Positions 3,425 through 45,004 of a stretch of DNA of 64,000 nt are shown piece by piece. Under the pieces are notes generated by a model. It ran no database searches. It was not told the origin of the DNA and worked only from the letters and a program-made list of their open reading frames with translations. The position numbers were made by a program, and so were the translations under genes. Numbering within the stretch: the first letter of the stretch is position 1; each line of letters opens with the position of its first letter. The DNA is from Escherichia phage vB_Eco4M-7, in sequence record MN176217; one strand, given 5' to 3'.

Positions 3425-4051
3425 TTAGATAATCTGGAAGGTGTAGGACTTGTTGCCGAACTCGAAGTTCAAGCGTCCAGCTTCTTTAAGCTTCATGCGG
3501 AAGCGAATATGCTTGCTATCCGGCAAGCCCAGCGCGGCGAACGCTACGCGGACCGATTTGAACTCGCCTACACCCTCGACCATAACGCCGTTACGGGTGA
3601 GACGCTTTTGCGCCACTTCTTTATTATCCCAACTTTTTGCAATACCTTTGCTATTCGAACGGCGATGGGAAGGAATTGCAATTTTATTCGCTCCAACCGG
3701 AGCATCATTAAGGCCGCTTTTAACGAAGGCTTCATATTCTTCGTCGGTCATCGCGTCGAGTTCTTCCTGGGTCGGCTCGGCCTTTTTAACGACCGCGCGC
3801 GCCTTATGCGTTTTTACATCACTGGACACTTCCTCGCGAGACTTTGCGTCTGGGATGGGCGATTCGTTGGACGGATCATCGAGCGCGTTTAAGGATTCGA
3901 TTAACGCGATTACGCGAGTCTCAGCGGTGCGACGGTCCGCGAATTTTTTAATCGGCTTTGAGCCTGAATTTTCGTTATAGAATGCAACGAGGTCGGCGGT
4001 CTTGGTTGCGATTACGTCGCCGCTGGTGGAGAAACGATTCAAACTGGCCAT
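3425..4051 (-). CDS. hypothetical protein
   Basis: 208-aa minus-strand ORF with natural composition and a terminator after its stop; overlapping + strand ORFs are R/F-rich and look spurious. Confidence 0.4.
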   Translation of the reverse strand: MASLNRFSTSGDVIATKTADLVAFYNENSGSKPIKKFADRRTAETRVIALIESLNALDDPSNESPIPDAKSREEVSSDVKTHKARAVVKKAEPTQEELDAMTDEEYEAFVKSGLNDAPVGANKIAIPSHRRSNSKGIAKSWDNKEVAQKRLTRNGVMVEGVGEFKSVRVAFAALGLPDSKHIRFRMKLKEAGRLNFEFGNKSYTFQII

Positions 4052-4192
4052 AATAAACTCCTAGTTTGGGAGCGGTGTCAACGACCTATTCGTTAACTCA
4101 TCCGTCCCGATATGAGTACATTATAATATAGTGTAGAAAAAAAGTAAAGCACTTTTTCGATAAAAATGAGATAAATTATTTTATCTTTTTTC

Positions 4193-4220
4193 TTTACTTC
4201 TTCGTACACTCGCGTATACT
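4193..4220 (+). promoter_or_regulatory. Promoter-like element copy A (-35 TTTACT, 16-bp spacer, -10 TATACT) within conserved block CTTTACTTCTTCGTACACT
   Basis: Near-identical block repeated at 4589-4619. Confidence 0.4.
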
Positions 4221-4276
4221 TGTTTATATCGAGACGGGCGATGGCCCTTCCTTCTAATAGCATCGGGAGTTTTATT

Positions 4277-5622: not shown

Positions 5623-5903
5623 TTTCGAATTGTAACGCTGGAAACTGTAACGGCGATTGATTATTGCGTTCGTGTGGTTTTTATGGCATGGGTCTTTTGG
5701 TGCGTTTTGCTACTTGATGGAATTTGCGGTACACTAATCAAAATACGACACATTTGGTCCACTAACTTTTCAAAGAAAAAGTCCTAGACAGTACCGTACT
5801 ATTTTGTACCCACAGGAAATTTGCAGTACACTCCTGCGCAGCAGGCAAAATAAAGGGCCGCACTAAGCGACCCACGATTCACGGTTAAAGCAACATCCAC
5901 CCA

Positions 5904-6368
5904 CTATTCAATCTTATGGGCATCACCAAAACCATCAGCAATCTGGCTGATCAACGACTCAATGGACACAGTTTTACCAATTGATCGAGCGGTAATAGCA
6001 AGCATATTATCAATCAAGCCACGATTGACTTCACATGTTCCAGGCTTTAACTCATCTTCAGAACAACCAAAAAGCTGGTCGCGCAGACTTTCAAGAGAAC
6101 GCTCAATATTTTCCAACTTCTCTTCTAAATCGGATTGGCGACGTAAAACCCATGTCAAGTCACGGTTGCCGACTTCCAATCCATCAGAATAGCAAGGTGG
6201 AGCGTCAATTTTGATGCTGGAACTAAAAGCAGTGCCGCTGCCTTTAGTATAAGTATGGCTCATAGAATCATTTTGGCTCATAGAATCATTTTTATTTGAC
6301 ATATCATTACCTTTAATATTTGGGTGATTAACAATAACTATAATAAAGCCGCATAGCGCGCCATTCAA
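5904..6368 (-). CDS. hypothetical protein with internal tandem 18-bp duplication
   Basis: ORF 154 aa; tandem GGCTCATAGAATCATTTT x2 at 6257-6292. Confidence 0.35.
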   Translation of the reverse strand: MNGALCGFIIVIVNHPNIKGNDMSNKNDSMSQNDSMSHTYTKGSGTAFSSSIKIDAPPCYSDGLEVGNRDLTWVLRRQSDLEEKLENIERSLESLRDQLFGCSEDELKPGTCEVNRGLIDNMLAITARSIGKTVSIESLISQIADGFGDAHKIE

Positions 6369-6399
6369 ATCGATTTATTAATTGTGACGATTGGATTCA

Positions 6400-9871: not shown

Positions 9872-10213
9872 TTAATTTCTTTTGAGAGGAATATGACGGT
9901 TGCTGTCATTATTTGGTTTAATAATGAGCATAAAAACGATTAGAAAGATGATGGCTGATATACTTAATTCAATCAGCGCGGCTTGAGATATGGATTGATC
10001 TTCATGATACTGCTTTTGCATTTCCGCTTTCTTTTGAGCGCAAACTTCAGGTGATATATAATCGCCTTTTGAGTTGCCATAATAAATCTCGCCATTCTCA
10101 GAAATAAGCCTGCCGCAAATATCCGTTTCAGCCTTTGCACTTGACATCATAATAACGGTGCCAATGATAGCAGCGATTGTCCAGATTAGCAGTTGTGATA
10201 AAGTGTTGTTCAT
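9872..10213 (-). CDS. membrane protein (N-terminal signal/TM segment and C-terminal TM helix)
   Basis: Hydrophobic N-terminal segment ending SSAKA and C-terminal hydrophobic stretch. Confidence 0.4.
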   Translation of the reverse strand: MNNTLSQLLIWTIAAIIGTVIMMSSAKAETDICGRLISENGEIYYGNSKGDYISPEVCAQKKAEMQKQYHEDQSISQAALIELSISAIIFLIVFMLIIKPNNDSNRHIPLKRN

Positions 10214-10660: not shown

Positions 10661-10853
10661 ATGTGCTGCCGCTTGTTTCTCTGTTTAGCAGGTATCTGCC
10701 GCGCATCCCATGAAGGCTGAACTCAACCGTCGATGGATTAGATTTTGAAAGCCATATAGGTTGCCCGTCGAATGGACCGCCTACGCATGTATATTTCGCT
10801 TTTGGCTCACTCCTTTTGGGCCGTTTTGCCCGCTCTTTGATTGATAGTCTCAT
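10632..10853 (-). CDS. hypothetical small basic protein
   Basis: ORF 73 aa. Confidence 0.3.
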   Translation of the reverse strand: MRLSIKERAKRPKRSEPKAKYTCVGGPFDGQPIWLSKSNPSTVEFSLHGMRGRYLLNRETSGSTFVEWKENGK

Positions 10854-11068
10854 CAGTCTTCACCTTGAGATTCCAGACAAGTAAGGACAAGCCACGTCAT
10901 CGGAAGAATCAAAACCAGAGAAATGAGGGACCAGATAGACCAGCACAAGATGACAGACTTGAATGTGTGAACGTCGCCAAACACAGCAGTAAAACAGAAT
11001 CCCATTACAAACGCAATAGCTGTGGAATGGTTGTCTATGGCTTTGATGGCACGGTCGATGAGTTTCAT
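10853..11068 (-). CDS. small membrane protein with two predicted TM helices (holin-like topology)
   Basis: 71 aa, two hydrophobic stretches, charged C-terminus ESQGED; not adjacent to endolysin. Confidence 0.3.
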   Translation of the reverse strand: MKLIDRAIKAIDNHSTAIAFVMGFCFTAVFGDVHTFKSVILCWSIWSLISLVLILPMTWLVLTCLESQGED

Positions 11069-39414: not shown

Positions 39415-40059
39415 ATGATTAATGCAAACGTAATATCTAAAGGGACCGGATGCAGCATGGATGTCGCAGAGGAGTGGGTGGACCCTTTCAAGCAGGCTTG
39501 TGAGCACTACGGAATCAAAAGCAAGAATGCCATCGCGGCGCTGCTTGCAAACGTAGGAGTGGAAACAGGCAGTCTGAAGACCTTTGTGGAAAACTTGAAC
39601 TACTCCGCTCAAGGTCTTGCGAATACATGGCCTAGCCGTTACAGCGCCAGCGGTCGTTTCGGCGGCGCACCAAACTCCTTGGCACTGTCGATTGCCCGTA
39701 AACCAATGGAAATCGCCAATAATACATATGCAAACCGAATGGGCAATGGTTCGGTAGCATCTGGCGACGGTTGGAAGTACCGTGGCCGTGGTGCCATTCA
39801 GCTGACTGGAAAGGCCAACTATGCAGAGTATTCAAAGCAATCAGGGTATGACGCATTGAATAACCCTGACATTTTGACTGAGCCGAAATACATCGCTGAC
39901 AGCGCGGCATGGTTTTTCAAGAACAGCGGTTGCATTCCACTTGCTGATGCTGGCGCATTTGATTCGACTGTGAAGCGGATTAACGGGGCCGCGCCAAATA
40001 CGGCTAACCATGGGGATTTGCGACGGAAGCGTTACAAGGATGCACTAGCAGTTGTGTAA
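39415..40059 (+). CDS. Endolysin, glycoside hydrolase family 19-like
   Basis: Motifs LLANVGVETGSL and YRGRGAIQLTGKANY. Confidence 0.75.
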   Translation: MINANVISKGTGCSMDVAEEWVDPFKQACEHYGIKSKNAIAALLANVGVETGSLKTFVENLNYSAQGLANTWPSRYSASGRFGGAPNSLALSIARKPMEIANNTYANRMGNGSVASGDGWKYRGRGAIQLTGKANYAEYSKQSGYDALNNPDILTEPKYIADSAAWFFKNSGCIPLADAGAFDSTVKRINGAAPNTANHGDLRRKRYKDALAVV

Positions 40060-40060
40060 G

Positions 40061-40091
40061 AAAAAGGCCCATATGGGCCTTTGTTTATTTT
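40061..40091. terminator. Bidirectional rho-independent terminator (AGGCCCATATGGGCCT flanked by A and T tracts)
   Basis: Perfect palindromic stem with T-rich tails on both strands at the junction of convergent modules. Confidence 0.65.
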
Positions 40092-40311
40092 ACGGCTTCA
40101 ACCTGGACGGGCGGCGCGGAACTTGTATCAATGTCTGGCAAGTCGAAGTAATACCCCGCCATGCCAATTACGCCAACAATCGCAGCCCGTGCCACCTTGT
40201 TGCTGATTGACTCCCCAATAAGCTTTACCAACAGGGACAAGATTTGAGACGTCAAAGCCTTTTTCAGCCTTTTGTTTTCTTCCAAATCTTTCTGCATAAC
40301 TACCACCCATG

Positions 40312-40854
40312 TCAACGCACTTCCTGTGTCTTAACATTACCTGAAGCATCTCTTAAGGGCAGTGGATAGTAGGCCATTTGGTAGTCTGATACGCCTTCAA
40401 CATGATAAAACACGATTACGTCTTTGCTGTTGATGAGCATGTTAACGACATCTGATTTATCTTCTGGAGTGAGTATGAGTGCGCCGCCTGTCCTGCTGTC
40501 TACTGCAACAGGGTATGTCTTGTCGACAAGGCCGCTGTCCAATGTATTATACCTGACAACGATTTCAGCGGCATCAACTTTTGCAATTGACATTCCGAAC
40601 ACAAACGAAACGACTTGGCGACCGCGATCATTCATTACGCACATCTTTTCCTTATCAAACCTTTCCTTTATCACATCATATTTGTTCCAGCAAAATTCGA
40701 ACGATTGGCCGTTGTTAAAATATCTCGTTAACACTTTGGCATTACTATTTGGCGGTGTAAACATACTTTCAGCCGCTGCACTTTTGGTGAAGAACAAGAC
40801 TGTCAGCATAGCCATGATGGTGATCAAAACAATCTTTAAAGTTTTCGATTTCAT
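40312..40854 (-). CDS. Secreted / periplasmic protein
   Basis: N-terminal signal peptide MKSKTLKIVLITIMAMLTVLFFTKSAAA. Confidence 0.4.
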   Translation of the reverse strand: MKSKTLKIVLITIMAMLTVLFFTKSAAAESMFTPPNSNAKVLTRYFNNGQSFEFCWNKYDVIKERFDKEKMCVMNDRGRQVVSFVFGMSIAKVDAAEIVVRYNTLDSGLVDKTYPVAVDSRTGGALILTPEDKSDVVNMLINSKDVIVFYHVEGVSDYQMAYYPLPLRDASGNVKTQEVR

Positions 40855-40956: not shown

Positions 40957-41030
40957 TTATGTATACACTGTATATTAAATTCTATAAAACAACGCGATAG
41001 ATTATCCGCACCAATTACTTATCTAGTGTC

Positions 41031-41993
41031 TTAAAAATACTCCATATCGGTAATATCACGGAAGCATTTATACAAAGCAGAGCGCGGCACGTCGACGATG
41101 CCAAAGTTAAAGAATTTATACGTTAGGTATTTATCGCGATAGTTCTCGCGATTCTCCCAAAGCATTTTACGCTCTGCCATAGGCATTGAACCAGCGGAGA
41201 CGCGGAAAGGAATCATTTCACCTTTCTCATCCACATATTTTGGATTGACGACTATGAATGAGCCAAGGTATGCTTTCGCAACTAAACCTTCAGCCTCTTT
41301 TGAACGCTTGGTGCGACCCAATTCGTCAATGAATGCTTCGTTGTTGTTCTCCATCATCTCAACGAAGTCTATGATCAACCCTTCTTCATCGGTCCACGGC
41401 TTGTCCTTCCACACATCACGTGACTTCGGCGTCGCGCGCCCATGCTTATATTTGCCCGTCCAAGACTTGCCATACAAGCCTTCATATCCAAGCTGGTCTG
41501 CTTCGATTTGCATCGCCGCGTACTGTTCCATATTTTCGATGTTTCGATATTCGAGAGCGCGAAGGAATGGGCGTCGACCATGGTTGATGAGATGTTGATT
41601 AACTTCAGCAACTCTAGCTCGATAGTTTGCATAACGCTTTTCAAAAGGCAGATCAGGGTCGCTGAAGTCATCAAACACCCACCATGTAAAGTTAGTGATT
41701 GCATCAGTATTCATGCATGCAGTATAGGCCTGTTGCATGACGTTCTTATCATTTGGATTGCCGTCGATTAGCTCTCCATCAAGTCCGTGAATTAGCTCAC
41801 CCAAAAAGAGGAACTCTTTTTTGATTTGAACGTTGCGCAACGGCATGCCGGAAGTGCCCATTGGCAAGTTGTCATACGCCATTGCACGTATGCCATCGAC
41901 CTTGAATGACAGTCCGCAAGGCAGCGGCACGTCCTCGCCGCGCTCGATAATCTGCTTACGTTGGCAACCCTTCATTGGTTTTAATGCTGTCAT
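41031..41993 (-). CDS. ATP-dependent DNA ligase
   Basis: Nucleotidyltransferase motif I KVDGIR near N-terminus; 320 aa. Confidence 0.65.
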   Translation of the reverse strand: MTALKPMKGCQRKQIIERGEDVPLPCGLSFKVDGIRAMAYDNLPMGTSGMPLRNVQIKKEFLFLGELIHGLDGELIDGNPNDKNVMQQAYTACMNTDAITNFTWWVFDDFSDPDLPFEKRYANYRARVAEVNQHLINHGRRPFLRALEYRNIENMEQYAAMQIEADQLGYEGLYGKSWTGKYKHGRATPKSRDVWKDKPWTDEEGLIIDFVEMMENNNEAFIDELGRTKRSKEAEGLVAKAYLGSFIVVNPKYVDEKGEMIPFRVSAGSMPMAERKMLWENRENYRDKYLTYKFFNFGIVDVPRSALYKCFRDITDMEYF

Positions 41994-41995
41994 AA

Positions 41996-42619
41996 TTATT
42001 GTCCTGTAACTTCTCTGATCACACGGTCTTCAAGTTCCAGCTTCTTTACCATTTTGCAGGAGTGCTCATAAGCTGGATCAGTAGATTTGATGAACGTTCC
42101 GTTGTACATGACACCTTTGCGGTCCTTGATGTCTTCGTAGGCCGCTTGCGCACAGTCGGATAAGCGAAGGCCATAATCATGAGCTACGCCGGAAAGGTAA
42201 TCGACTGCGGCCATGATGGTGACGTCAATATCCATGGTCTGATTCTTAGCAATAGCATCACCAAGCCGTCCAAGGGTCTTTGCCAGGCGAAGGATGAATG
42301 AATGAGGGTGAGCGCCTTTATCAGCACAACCGCCGCCATTAATGTTTTCGATTTCAGTACCGTTTTGCGCCGCCAGGATGGTCAACACAACAAGACAATC
42401 GCCAATGTCGTCCTTGATTGCAGCTTGCAAGTCACAGATGGCCTGCTCTGTATATCCAATTTCAGGGTCGAAGAACACAAGGTCATGGAGTTGATCAACG
42501 TGGTCGGTTAACTCCCCAAACTCGCTGATAAGCTTCGGGTATTGGTCCTTAAGGTCGCAACCTTGGATGATGTTACGGTCAGAAGCCCACTGGCGAATGT
42601 TTGCATAAATCTGTTTCAT
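41996..42619 (-). CDS. All-alpha NTP pyrophosphohydrolase (MazG / dimeric dUTPase-like) candidate
   Basis: Acidic helical motif ISEFGELTDHVDQ; 207 aa. Confidence 0.35.
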   Translation of the reverse strand: MKQIYANIRQWASDRNIIQGCDLKDQYPKLISEFGELTDHVDQLHDLVFFDPEIGYTEQAICDLQAAIKDDIGDCLVVLTILAAQNGTEIENINGGGCADKGAHPHSFILRLAKTLGRLGDAIAKNQTMDIDVTIMAAVDYLSGVAHDYGLRLSDCAQAAYEDIKDRKGVMYNGTFIKSTDPAYEHSCKMVKKLELEDRVIREVTGQ

Positions 42620-43135
42620 TTATTTTTCCTTTGATGCATTGAATTGATCGATTTTTATTTTAGCCTGATTATAAGTATCAATCAAGCTATTAACTTTCTC
42701 TTTTAATCGATTTGTTTCTGCGGCGAACTGAACAAGAAATCTGACATCCTCTTCTGATAGTCCACAGTTTCCTTCTGGGATAGAGAGGCGTCCAGTGGTC
42801 GCAGAGTCGGGCACACTCCTGAGTAACTCACGGGAACAGCTGAGTTGCTCGCGCAACTTGACATTCCCAGACTTGTAACGAGCAATAGTGTCATCAGCAA
42901 CCAGTTGCGCTTCCTGGCGACCCTTCTCATATGCCGATGCCGATTCAACCTGTAAAGTTGCAATTTGCTCTTCGAGTGCATTTATCTTGTCCTTACGCTC
43001 ATTAAGCGATGTCAGATATTGATTATCCTTGGCCAGTGATGCGTTGGTTTGCTGCAGGTCTTCAACGTATGATCCAGCGGCAAATGCGCCAACAAGGGCC
43101 AGAATCTTCAGGAGCGGTACAATTCTTTCTATCAT
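42620..43135 (-). CDS. Membrane-anchored coiled-coil protein (i-spanin / Rz-like)
   Basis: N-terminal TM helix, heptad-rich body, nested out-of-frame ORF with signal peptide. Confidence 0.35.
   Translation of the reverse strand: MIERIVPLLKILALVGAFAAGSYVEDLQQTNASLAKDNQYLTSLNERKDKINALEEQIATLQVESASAYEKGRQEAQLVADDTIARYKSGNVKLREQLSCSRELLRSVPDSATTGRLSIPEGNCGLSEEDVRFLVQFAAETNRLKEKVNSLIDTYNQAKIKIDQFNASKEK
42703..42930 (-). CDS. Nested out-of-frame small protein with signal peptide and Cys (o-spanin / Rz1-like candidate)
   Basis: MRRVARKRNWLLMTLLLVTSLGMSSC... entirely inside 42620..43135 in another frame. Confidence 0.25.
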   Translation of the reverse strand: MRRVARKRNWLLMTLLLVTSLGMSSCASNSAVPVSYSGVCPTLRPLDASLSQKETVDYQKRMSDFLFSSPQKQID

Positions 43136-43192
43136 GATGCACCAGATAAATAAAAGGCCGCCAAACGGCAGCCTTGTTGATTTGATTGTCGA

Positions 43193-44053
43193 TTAAAACT
43201 CTTCTGCGTCGGTCGGAGTTTCATTGACAGGACCAGCGGCACCGCTTGCTTCTTCCTGCTTGCTGCGGTCGATGTTAACGTTACCGCCAACTACGTCGTT
43301 GTGGAATGCCTTGGCGACTTCGTACAGGCCTTTGTCCTGCACCAGACCTTCTAGCTCAAACTTCAGAACAGACCAGGTGTTGCCGTCTTTGGACTGGGAT
43401 GCAGTACCCATGCGAACGATGTTCATAAAGGTCGGCGGCGTTTTCAGACCCTGCGGAGTCTGAACTTTCTTCTGCTGCAGAGCGGTCATCAGCATGCGAG
43501 ACGGCTTGATCATGGAAGAAGTCAGAGACAGCATTGCGCTACCAAATTCACCAGTTTCTTCGTTCAACAGAATTACGAAGTGGTTGCGTGTATCTGCGTA
43601 GTAAGGAGATTTCTTCTCGTGCACCTTGCCGTTTTCGTCCGGCACGAATACCTTACCGTTGATCTCAACAGCGCGGCCTGCCGCGACTTCTGCATCAACG
43701 TGCTCTTTGGTGAATTCACCTTTAAAGCCTTTATCGTCGGACTCGCGACCGCCCCAAAGAATGAAGGTGCGTTTGAATGCGCAAGGGATGATCTGCACGC
43801 CTTTCTTACCGTCATACAACTCACCAGTAACGGTGTTGTAAAGCATGCCAGCTTTTGCACCAGGAACGTGTTTTGGATCATCTTCGTCGACCATAGGAGA
43901 CATCTTCTGCAGGACGACGATAAAAGGAATGGCATACGCATCGGCATCGGCACCTTCAAAACCAGCGCCAAAATCGGTCATGTCGACAAAATCAGCCATA
44001 GCGGACATCTGGGTGTTTTTCACTGCAACTTCGGTAGTTTCTTTCTTAGACAT
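43193..44053 (-). CDS. Single-stranded DNA-binding protein candidate (T7 gp2.5-like)
   Basis: 286 aa with acidic C-terminal tail ending ...TDAEEF, as in SSB interaction tails. Confidence 0.4.
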   Translation of the reverse strand: MSKKETTEVAVKNTQMSAMADFVDMTDFGAGFEGADADAYAIPFIVVLQKMSPMVDEDDPKHVPGAKAGMLYNTVTGELYDGKKGVQIIPCAFKRTFILWGGRESDDKGFKGEFTKEHVDAEVAAGRAVEINGKVFVPDENGKVHEKKSPYYADTRNHFVILLNEETGEFGSAMLSLTSSMIKPSRMLMTALQQKKVQTPQGLKTPPTFMNIVRMGTASQSKDGNTWSVLKFELEGLVQDKGLYEVAKAFHNDVVGGNVNIDRSKQEEASGAAGPVNETPTDAEEF

Positions 44054-44112
44054 TTGATATTTTCCTATAGTATCAAGTTTCGTGGCAACCTGATTTCAAG
44101 ATAAAGGTTAAA

Positions 44113-44670
44113 TTACTTTTTGCTTTTAGGCAAGGTTATTTTAGCTTCTTTGTATTCAAAAACGCTAATATCTTCACTAACTGGGTTGCCCGCTTCCAGC
44201 TGTTCTTTTACAAATGACTTCAGTGTAGCAGAATGAACGCCTTGTTTCAATGTGGCTTCAACACCATCTTCACGCAGCGCGGCAACAATCTCTTGCGCCT
44301 GTTCGATTTCTTCGCGACCGAACTCAGCCGTGACGCTGGACTTGATCAAGCCGCCGTAACCGTTGTTTACAAGCCAATCGAAAACTTTTAATTCGTTTTC
44401 TTTCTTGATTGAAGCGTTCACCTTGGACTCGACCTTGATTTTGGTCTTGTCCTCAAGCTTGATTTCGGACACACCAAGCTCATCCATAACGCCAGGAAGC
44501 AGAACAGTTTTGATTTCACTGATGCGCTGCTTTTGCATATCAGCTTCATCTTCAAGCTCTGTCAAAGCTTCTTGGCGTTCTGCCAGTTCAGATACTAAGC
44601 GCGCAAGGCGCTCTTGAATGCCCTCAGGAGCAACCTGCGGCAAATCATCTTCCCAATTAATATTGCTCAT
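44113..44670 (-). CDS. hypothetical protein with N-terminal coiled coil
   Basis: ORF 185 aa. Confidence 0.4.
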   Translation of the reverse strand: MSNINWEDDLPQVAPEGIQERLARLVSELAERQEALTELEDEADMQKQRISEIKTVLLPGVMDELGVSEIKLEDKTKIKVESKVNASIKKENELKVFDWLVNNGYGGLIKSSVTAEFGREEIEQAQEIVAALREDGVEATLKQGVHSATLKSFVKEQLEAGNPVSEDISVFEYKEAKITLPKSKK

Positions 44671-44930
44671 ATTTTACCTTCTTGCATTAGCCCTTCAACA
44701 CGGGTCATTTGATAACGTTCAGGTTTCCAAGCCGCCAAAGCCTTCTCAGCGCCTTTTAAGGTTTTATATGCCTTGATGCCAGGCACAATAACGGTATTCA
44801 CCCCAGCACCGTTGCCATAATCAAACTCTTTCACAACGCGGAACATCCCGTCAATTTCTTTGACCAAAAGACGTTTGAAAGCGATTGCGCCAGTAGCTTC
44901 ATTTTTGTAACGTTCAAGGATGCGTACCAT
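44667..44930 (-). CDS. hypothetical protein
   Basis: ORF 87 aa overlapping downstream start. Confidence 0.4.
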   Translation of the reverse strand: MVRILERYKNEATGAIAFKRLLVKEIDGMFRVVKEFDYGNGAGVNTVIVPGIKAYKTLKGAEKALAAWKPERYQMTRVEGLMQEGKI

Positions 44931-45004
44931 TTTGTATTCCTCTGTTTCGTTTCGATGAAGTAATTATGACTCATCTTCCGTGACAAGTCAAATTATTTTT
45001 GATA

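Follow-up and report, generated by a model that had tools for sequence, protein, structure and literature searches.

The window analysed here was a stretch of 64,000 nucleotides of DNA from Escherichia phage vB_Eco4M-7 (sequence record MN176217). On its minus strand an open reading frame (ORF) for a protein of 171 residues wholly contains a second ORF, which lies in the +1 frame and encodes 92 residues from its first ATG. The features of this locus, and of the endolysin region with which it is compared below, were as follows.

42620..43135, minus strand: predicted i-spanin gene, 171 residues, with a short cytoplasmic N-terminus, a transmembrane helix, a periplasmic helix-linker-helix region and cysteines C100 and C124 (from the ORF, the match to phrog_1327, AlphaFold2, hhalign and alignment)
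43067..43123, minus strand: predicted transmembrane segment of the i-spanin, residues 5-23, IVPLLKILALVGAFAAGSY (from hydropathy and translation)
42703..42981, minus strand: predicted o-spanin gene, embedded, encoding a 92-residue precursor (from the +1 ORF, its conservation, and the annotations of phages Mansfield and Bas99, which have the same limits)
42853..42870, minus strand: lipobox LGMSSC, in which Cys43 is the predicted lipidated first residue of the mature protein and the Ala at +2 is compatible with outer-membrane sorting (from translation and the PS51257-type pattern)
42990..42994, minus strand: putative Shine-Dalgarno sequence of the o-spanin, AAGGA (from the sequence; kept in five lineages)
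43154..43175, minus strand: predicted intrinsic terminator hairpin of 9 bp with a GUUU loop, followed by UUUUAUUUAU (from scan, fold and the terminator annotation of Mansfield)
39415..40059, plus strand: GH19 endolysin gene, 214 residues, which closes the convergent tail operon (from the ORF; phrog_181, E 2.1e-69; PF00182, E 2.4e-7)
40063..40082, no strand assigned (the scan lists the plus strand only): hairpin between the convergent units, just after the endolysin stop codon (from scan)

Analyses of the outer protein indicated that it has the organization of an i-spanin. Its sole hydrophobic segment comprises residues 5-23 (Kyte-Doolittle mean of 1.8 over 19 residues and of 2.6 over 11) and is preceded by a tail of four residues that includes Arg4. 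A preliminary description, made from the sequence alone, had reported a 171-residue protein with an N-terminal transmembrane helix, and both the ORF and the hydropathy profile agreed with it. This was the only transmembrane domain found, and the rest of the chain is predicted to be periplasmic. An AlphaFold2 prediction that used five homologues (mean pLDDT 78.8) had a helix from residue 5 to 106, a non-helical linker from 107 to 127 and a second helix from 128 to 170, so that the periplasmic domain is predicted to be mostly alpha-helical, with the two segments and linker looked for in an i-spanin. In a PHROG profile search the protein matched phrog_1327, "Rz-like spanin", with an E value of 1.9e-26 (residues 6-160 against positions 9-156 of the 158 in the profile). 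A Pfam scan of the protein returned no match at E <= 0.1, the Phage_lysis family PF03245 included. Alignment of the outer proteins showed that C100 and C124 are invariant.

The same gene pair has been recorded in other members of the genus Wifcevirus. A 4-kb query (41000-45000) was 100% identical to the genome of vB_Eco4M-7n (PP596836.1) and 93-99% identical to 27 other Wifcevirus records, including WFC, WFH, ECML-117, FEC19, Mansfield and Bas98-101. The pair is annotated as i-spanin and o-spanin, with the same coordinates, in Mansfield (2019; MK903282, CPT_Mansfield_057/058) and in Bas98-101 (2025), and ECML-117 was included in the 2018 spanin census of Kongari et al. (PMC6139136), where its proteins formed singleton families of an embedded i-spanin and o-spanin. 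In Mansfield, Bas98-101 and ECML-117 the outer ORF has 171-172 residues and the nested ORF 92, both lie between a Pam3 gp34-like gene and the MazG gene, and each protein differs from its vB_Eco4M-7 counterpart by 0-7 amino acids. On the strength of these annotations and of the census, the spanin pair is already known in close relatives and is, in this sense, ordinary. Other records are less complete. The RefSeq entries of WFC, WFH, ECML-117 and FEC19 name the outer gene "Rz-like spanin". In PP596836.1 all six features under the 4-kb match, the spanin gene among them, are called "hypothetical protein" and the nested o-spanin is omitted. MK373777, JX128258 and MH816966 likewise have no spanin label under the match, use "hypothetical protein" and list no o-spanin; among PP596836.1 and its sister GenBank records, two name the ligase alone in this region. 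The genome papers of Mansfield and vB_Eco4M-7 do not discuss lysis genes.

More divergent relatives were obtained from a protein search, which identified four metagenomic sequences with outer proteins 52-65% identical to that of vB_Eco4M-7, and their contigs were then retrieved. A scan of viral_contigs produced just four near-identical Wifcevirus contigs and none of the divergent relatives.

The nested ORF has the features of an outer-membrane lipoprotein gene. The sequence LLVTSLGMSSC fits a PROSITE PS51257-type lipobox pattern, as needed for cleavage by signal peptidase II, and has Ala, and no Asp, at position +2; the lipobox is kept in relatives. The mature o-spanin is predicted to have 50 residues and to start with Cys-Ala, and it contains four Pro (8%) and one further Cys, which lies in a GVCP motif and was invariant among the relatives aligned. 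These properties bore out the earlier claim of a signal peptide followed by Cys and a short Pro-containing mature peptide. Both proteins therefore have periplasmic Cys residues (C100 and C124 of the i-spanin and the second Cys of the o-spanin) that could form intermolecular disulfide bonds. A Pfam scan of the o-spanin identified no spanin or Rz1 family above threshold. The nested ORF was the only plausible lipoprotein ORF in the six frames of the 64-kb window. When the outer gene was shuffled, a nested ORF meeting the same criteria arose in 29 of 20,000 codon-order shuffles and in 235 of 20,000 synonymous-codon shuffles (0.15-1.2%). The description of the nested ORF is accurate, and its origin by chance is unlikely.

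The one part of that description that did not stand was the start codon. The nested ORF had been given as 42703-42930, which is correct in frame, but the ATG at 42930 is an internal Met codon (giving 75 residues), with the first ATG lying at 42981. The Met codons 42 and 25 residues before the lipobox Cys are both kept in five lineages. The ATG at 42981 has AAGGA 8 nt to its 5' side in all five lineages, and it persists while the outer residues that it overlaps vary from lineage to lineage (N-A, Y-D, H-D, D-D and N-E). The ATG at 42930 is without a Shine-Dalgarno sequence and coincides with a conserved Tyr-Glu (YE) motif of the outer protein. Based on the conserved AAGGA, the persistence of the upstream codon despite changing outer residues and the lack of such a signal at 42930, the start at 42981 appears the better supported of the two, and the annotators of Mansfield and Bas99 likewise chose the equivalent codon. 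With this start the N-region of the signal is unusually long (27 residues) and very basic, which counts against reading the pair as an embedded spanin. Both starts lead to an identical 50-residue mature lipoprotein.

Searches beyond the genus linked the pair to spanins of other phages. In a tblastn comparison with phage genomes, distant relatives that carry a spanin annotation came from Yersinia phage PY54, Burkholderia phage Mica, and Pantoea phages LIET2 and Nafs113. The i-spanin was matched by hhalign to the Rz-like spanin of PY54 (probability 99.3%, E 2.4e-20) and to the i-spanin of Mica (probability 97.4%, E 1.1e-11), and these homologues (ORF63 in PY54) are just 28-33% identical to it. 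The o-spanins nested in the +1 frame of the PY54 and Mica genes could be aligned with the vB_Eco4M-7 o-spanin at the lipobox and share with it the motifs C-P-x-x-P-P and D-(Y/F)-x-x-x-M-x-x-F-L-F. In both of these siphoviruses the pair belongs to a late lysis cassette, directly after the genes for holin and endolysin, unlike the pair of vB_Eco4M-7. The nested o-spanin ORF is unannotated in the PY54 RefSeq record (2471-2992 of retrieved stretch L015). In Nafs113, the i-spanin homologue ORF66 (3734-4234 of retrieved stretch L017) also holds an unannotated lipoprotein ORF nested in the +1 frame (…LVISGCANNSPVIGTCPKMPPVD…MSNFLF…), which, judged by its sequence, is clearly homologous to the vB_Eco4M-7 o-spanin family. 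The gene upstream of it, ORF67, is annotated as "putative o-spanin", and inspection found in it none of the motifs of the o-spanin family.

The functional class to which such embedded two-component spanins belong was reportedly defined by Summer et al. in 2007, and by Kongari et al. in 2018. The links to lambda, whose spanins are the reference for an embedded pair, were weaker at the level of sequence. The i-spanin profile did not match lambda Rz significantly (hhalign E 0.1, probability 0.6%), and the only link of this protein to PF03245 is indirect, via Mica, whose annotators report that family. A profile of eight o-spanins aligned with lambda Rz1 over 48 columns that take in both Cys as well as the PP and M-Q-P..D-W-Q motifs, a result that is suggestive only (hhalign E 1.9e-4, probability 47.6%). 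The likenesses in organization were closer. As in vB_Eco4M-7, the o-spanin of lambda is fully embedded in the +1 frame; Rz has an N-terminal transmembrane helix, a pair of helical segments joined by a linker, and two Cys in the periplasm, and Rz1 is a short lipoprotein that contains Pro and one additional Cys. The vB_Eco4M-7 pair differs in standing outside a holin-endolysin-spanin cassette, in the longer N-region of its signal and in having four Pro in 50 residues. By analogy, the pair would be Rz/Rz1-like in its working, with the same gene architecture.

Together, the match to phrog_1327, the profile matches to PY54 and Mica, and the conservation of a nested frame with its lipobox supported the embedded i-spanin/o-spanin reading that had been proposed, and we consider it very probable that the locus encodes a two-component spanin of the embedded, lambda Rz/Rz1-type architecture.

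The genomic setting of the pair is less typical. Downstream of it are genes for a MazG-like pyrophosphatase and an ATP-dependent ligase; upstream are Pam3 gp34- and gp33-like genes and, further upstream in relatives, a helicase gene and a Pol III alpha gene. On the replication strand the pair comes first in a unit of spanin, MazG and ligase cistrons, and its reported position inside the replication module was confirmed by these replication and nucleotide-metabolism neighbors. The terminator ahead of it (fold of -19.4 kcal/mol, z -3.0) has a stem that ends 18 nt 5' of the i-spanin ATG, and a hairpin and T-run occur at the same place in all the divergent relatives; a terminator is also annotated in Mansfield. 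As this spacing leaves no room for a promoter, we infer read-through from the upstream replication genes, by which the spanin pair is probably made together with the DNA-metabolism genes. Mansfield has annotated terminators on both strands at the junction of the convergent units (40063-40082 here).

The endolysin gene ends 2,560 bp from the spanin stop codon, on the opposite strand; the orientation is as had been described, and the distance is 2.56 kb rather than 3 kb. The GH19 endolysin, of canonical cytoplasmic type, has no N-terminal hydrophobic or SAR segment and is presumed to be the functional partner of the spanins. Neither PHROG nor Pfam gave a holin match for the two small neighbors of the endolysin gene; the ORFs with two transmembrane domains at 9872-10213 and 10853-11068 had no match of any kind in either, and no holin is annotated in Bas99. 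The statement that no holin adjoins the endolysin or the pair was therefore correct in that none is recognised by family match, but a 70-residue protein of phrog_5165 remains a candidate. Its gene (40085-40297, minus strand) directly adjoins that of the endolysin at the 3' end of the latter. The protein contains two short helices, hydrophobic or amphipathic, and is conserved beside the endolysin in Wifcevirus, Myosmarvirus and Pbunavirus. We regard this protein as a candidate holin or lysis regulator.

Three further genes of the window were noted in the same searches. The minus-strand ORFs 10853-11068 (71 residues) and 9872-10213 (113 residues), about 30 kb from the endolysin, each encode two strongly hydrophobic segments, and the former resembles a class II holin in size and layout. 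A gene at 40312-40854 (minus strand), situated between those for the ligase and the endolysin, encodes a protein of 180 residues that has an N-terminal segment resembling a signal peptide (…FFTKSAAAES…) and that matched no family. All three divergent contigs long enough to include this gene (L007-L009) retain it, and its product is likely periplasmic or secreted.

A position in a lysis cassette is typical of spanin genes, and not obligatory. The pair does not have it, which counts against the embedded-spanin reading. Phage T4 provides a precedent, as pseT.3/pseT.2 are not near the holin gene t or the endolysin gene e (Kongari et al. 2018, PMC6139136). Like the vB_Eco4M-7 pair, T4 PseT.3/PseT.2 is a two-component spanin of a virulent myovirus with its genes away from those for holin and endolysin; it differs in its separated architecture, in its unrelated sequences and in an i-spanin that has no Cys. 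The scattering of lysis functions that had been suggested was thus the arrangement seen here, and T4 had already shown it.

The setting might also be explained if a spanin-like pair had another role in the envelope, such as superinfection exclusion or the anchoring of replication or packaging, with the outer membrane disrupted by other means. A pair that lies among replication genes, behind a terminator and apart from the endolysin, in a position conserved in relatives, would suit such a role. We nevertheless consider it highly improbable, based on the homologues of both subunits being the last genes of classical lysis cassettes, on the 64-kb window holding no other candidate for a lipoprotein or a unimolecular spanin, and on the bona fide spanins of T4 being similarly distant from its holin and endolysin genes.

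Comparison of the relatives allowed the two frames to be assessed separately. Loss of the nested frame, or of its lipobox or signal peptide, in homologues had been named as an outcome that would speak against the pair. Both frames were intact in all six close relatives examined and in all four divergent ones, the latter having LAISGC, LAISSC or LATSSC as their lipobox. The mature o-spanin was 66-74% identical to those of the divergent relatives and the signal region 26-38%, the lower value being expected of a cleaved signal. In a codon alignment, the mean pairwise difference at third positions of the outer gene was 0.572 outside the overlap and 0.240 over the mature o-spanin. As the third positions of the outer frame are the second positions of the nested frame, this lowered diversity gives direct evidence that the nested product is selected, and the alignments showed that both frames are under selection. 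Gene order was also kept in all four divergent relatives (gp33-like, gp34-like, spanin, MazG, ligase, the 180-residue gene and a gene for about 75 residues). All three divergent contigs that extend to the endolysin position had an opposite-strand gene there, with a weak Glyco_hydro_19 match in L009 only. In four of five lineages the +2 frame of 42620-43135 had an open stretch of 43-67 codons, with no lipobox match, which is probably a passive result of the constraint on the two other frames.

That the outer protein alone is made, with the nested ORF an untranslated by-product of conservation of the outer sequence, could draw on the +2 frame, open in those lineages without a coding signature and showing that long alternative-frame ORFs can arise passively here, and on the coincidence of the ATG at 42930 with the outer YE motif, but it is extremely improbable given that wobble positions of the outer frame vary less than half as much in the overlap, that the lipobox is kept with different residues and the signal and mature regions diverge so unequally, that changes of outer residues have left the ATG at 42981 and its AAGGA in place, that homologous nested lipoproteins occur in PY54, Mica and Nafs113 with outer proteins just 28-46% identical to the vB_Eco4M-7 i-spanin, and that shuffling so seldom yields such an ORF.

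For the two-component spanin, we infer the mechanism from the lambda model, and it is on this model that the membrane topology, complex formation, disulfide dimers, fusion and expression timing described here are based. The N-terminal helix would hold the i-spanin in the inner membrane, with the helix-linker-helix domain reaching into the periplasm. The o-spanin would be translated in the +1 frame and exported; after lipidation at Cys43 of the precursor and cleavage by signal peptidase II, it would be sorted to the outer membrane. Binding between the C-termini of the i-spanin and the o-spanin would then yield complexes that bridge the periplasm. The complexes, probably covalent dimers joined through the invariant periplasmic Cys, would be restrained by the peptidoglycan mesh; disulfide-linked spanin dimers were described by Kongari et al. 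2018 (PMC6139136), and the invariant Cys of the vB_Eco4M-7 proteins fit them. After a holin has freed the GH19 endolysin and the wall has been broken down, the complexes would complete lysis through fusion or disruption of the two membranes, inner and outer. Because spanins would be inert until the wall is gone, making them alongside the replication genes should be harmless. The development of vB_Eco4M-7 is reported to be complete within about 10 minutes (PMC7048862; see also PMC11990801), and expression with the replication genes may suit so short a cycle.

The position between the gp34-like gene and MazG was also compared in the wider lineage. Pbunaviruses (PB1-type) are distant relatives of Wifcevirus that have the order of replication and tail genes in common with it (PMC11990801), and PB1-like phages were listed with a unimolecular spanin by Kongari et al. 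2018 (PMC6139136). At the slot of the spanin pair, Pbunavirus PS44 has an unrelated membrane protein of 201 residues without a lipobox, a member of phrog_1544 (gp54; 5789-6394 of retrieved stretch L014), and a protein of the same family and length occupies the slot in Serratia phage MTx (Myosmarvirus; gp064, 5940-6545 of L013). The 201-residue protein is rich in Gly at its N-terminus and contains one or two hydrophobic segments. For PS44 there was a sub-threshold match to GTA_holin_3TM (E 0.018) and for MTx none at E <= 0.1; a tblastn search of the 64-kb window detected no homologue. We rejected the protein as the unimolecular spanin of PB1-like phages, as it has no match to the lipobox pattern, and it may instead be an unannotated holin of these phages. 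These occupants hint at a slot used for envelope or lysis genes throughout the wider lineage. We could go further and speculate that Pbunavirus, Myosmarvirus and Wifcevirus share a conserved "lysis slot" on the replication transcript, in which Wifceviruses swapped the phrog_1544 gene for a PY54/Mica-like spanin pair and where early spanins made by read-through could help a cycle of about 10 min, but we think this unlikely.

The evidence presented here justifies transferring the i-spanin/o-spanin annotation to the records that list "hypothetical protein" at this locus, and beyond annotation quality the pair itself matters little. The locus is a clean textbook case of purifying selection on two frames, and it shows again that spanin genes may stand outside the lysis cassette.
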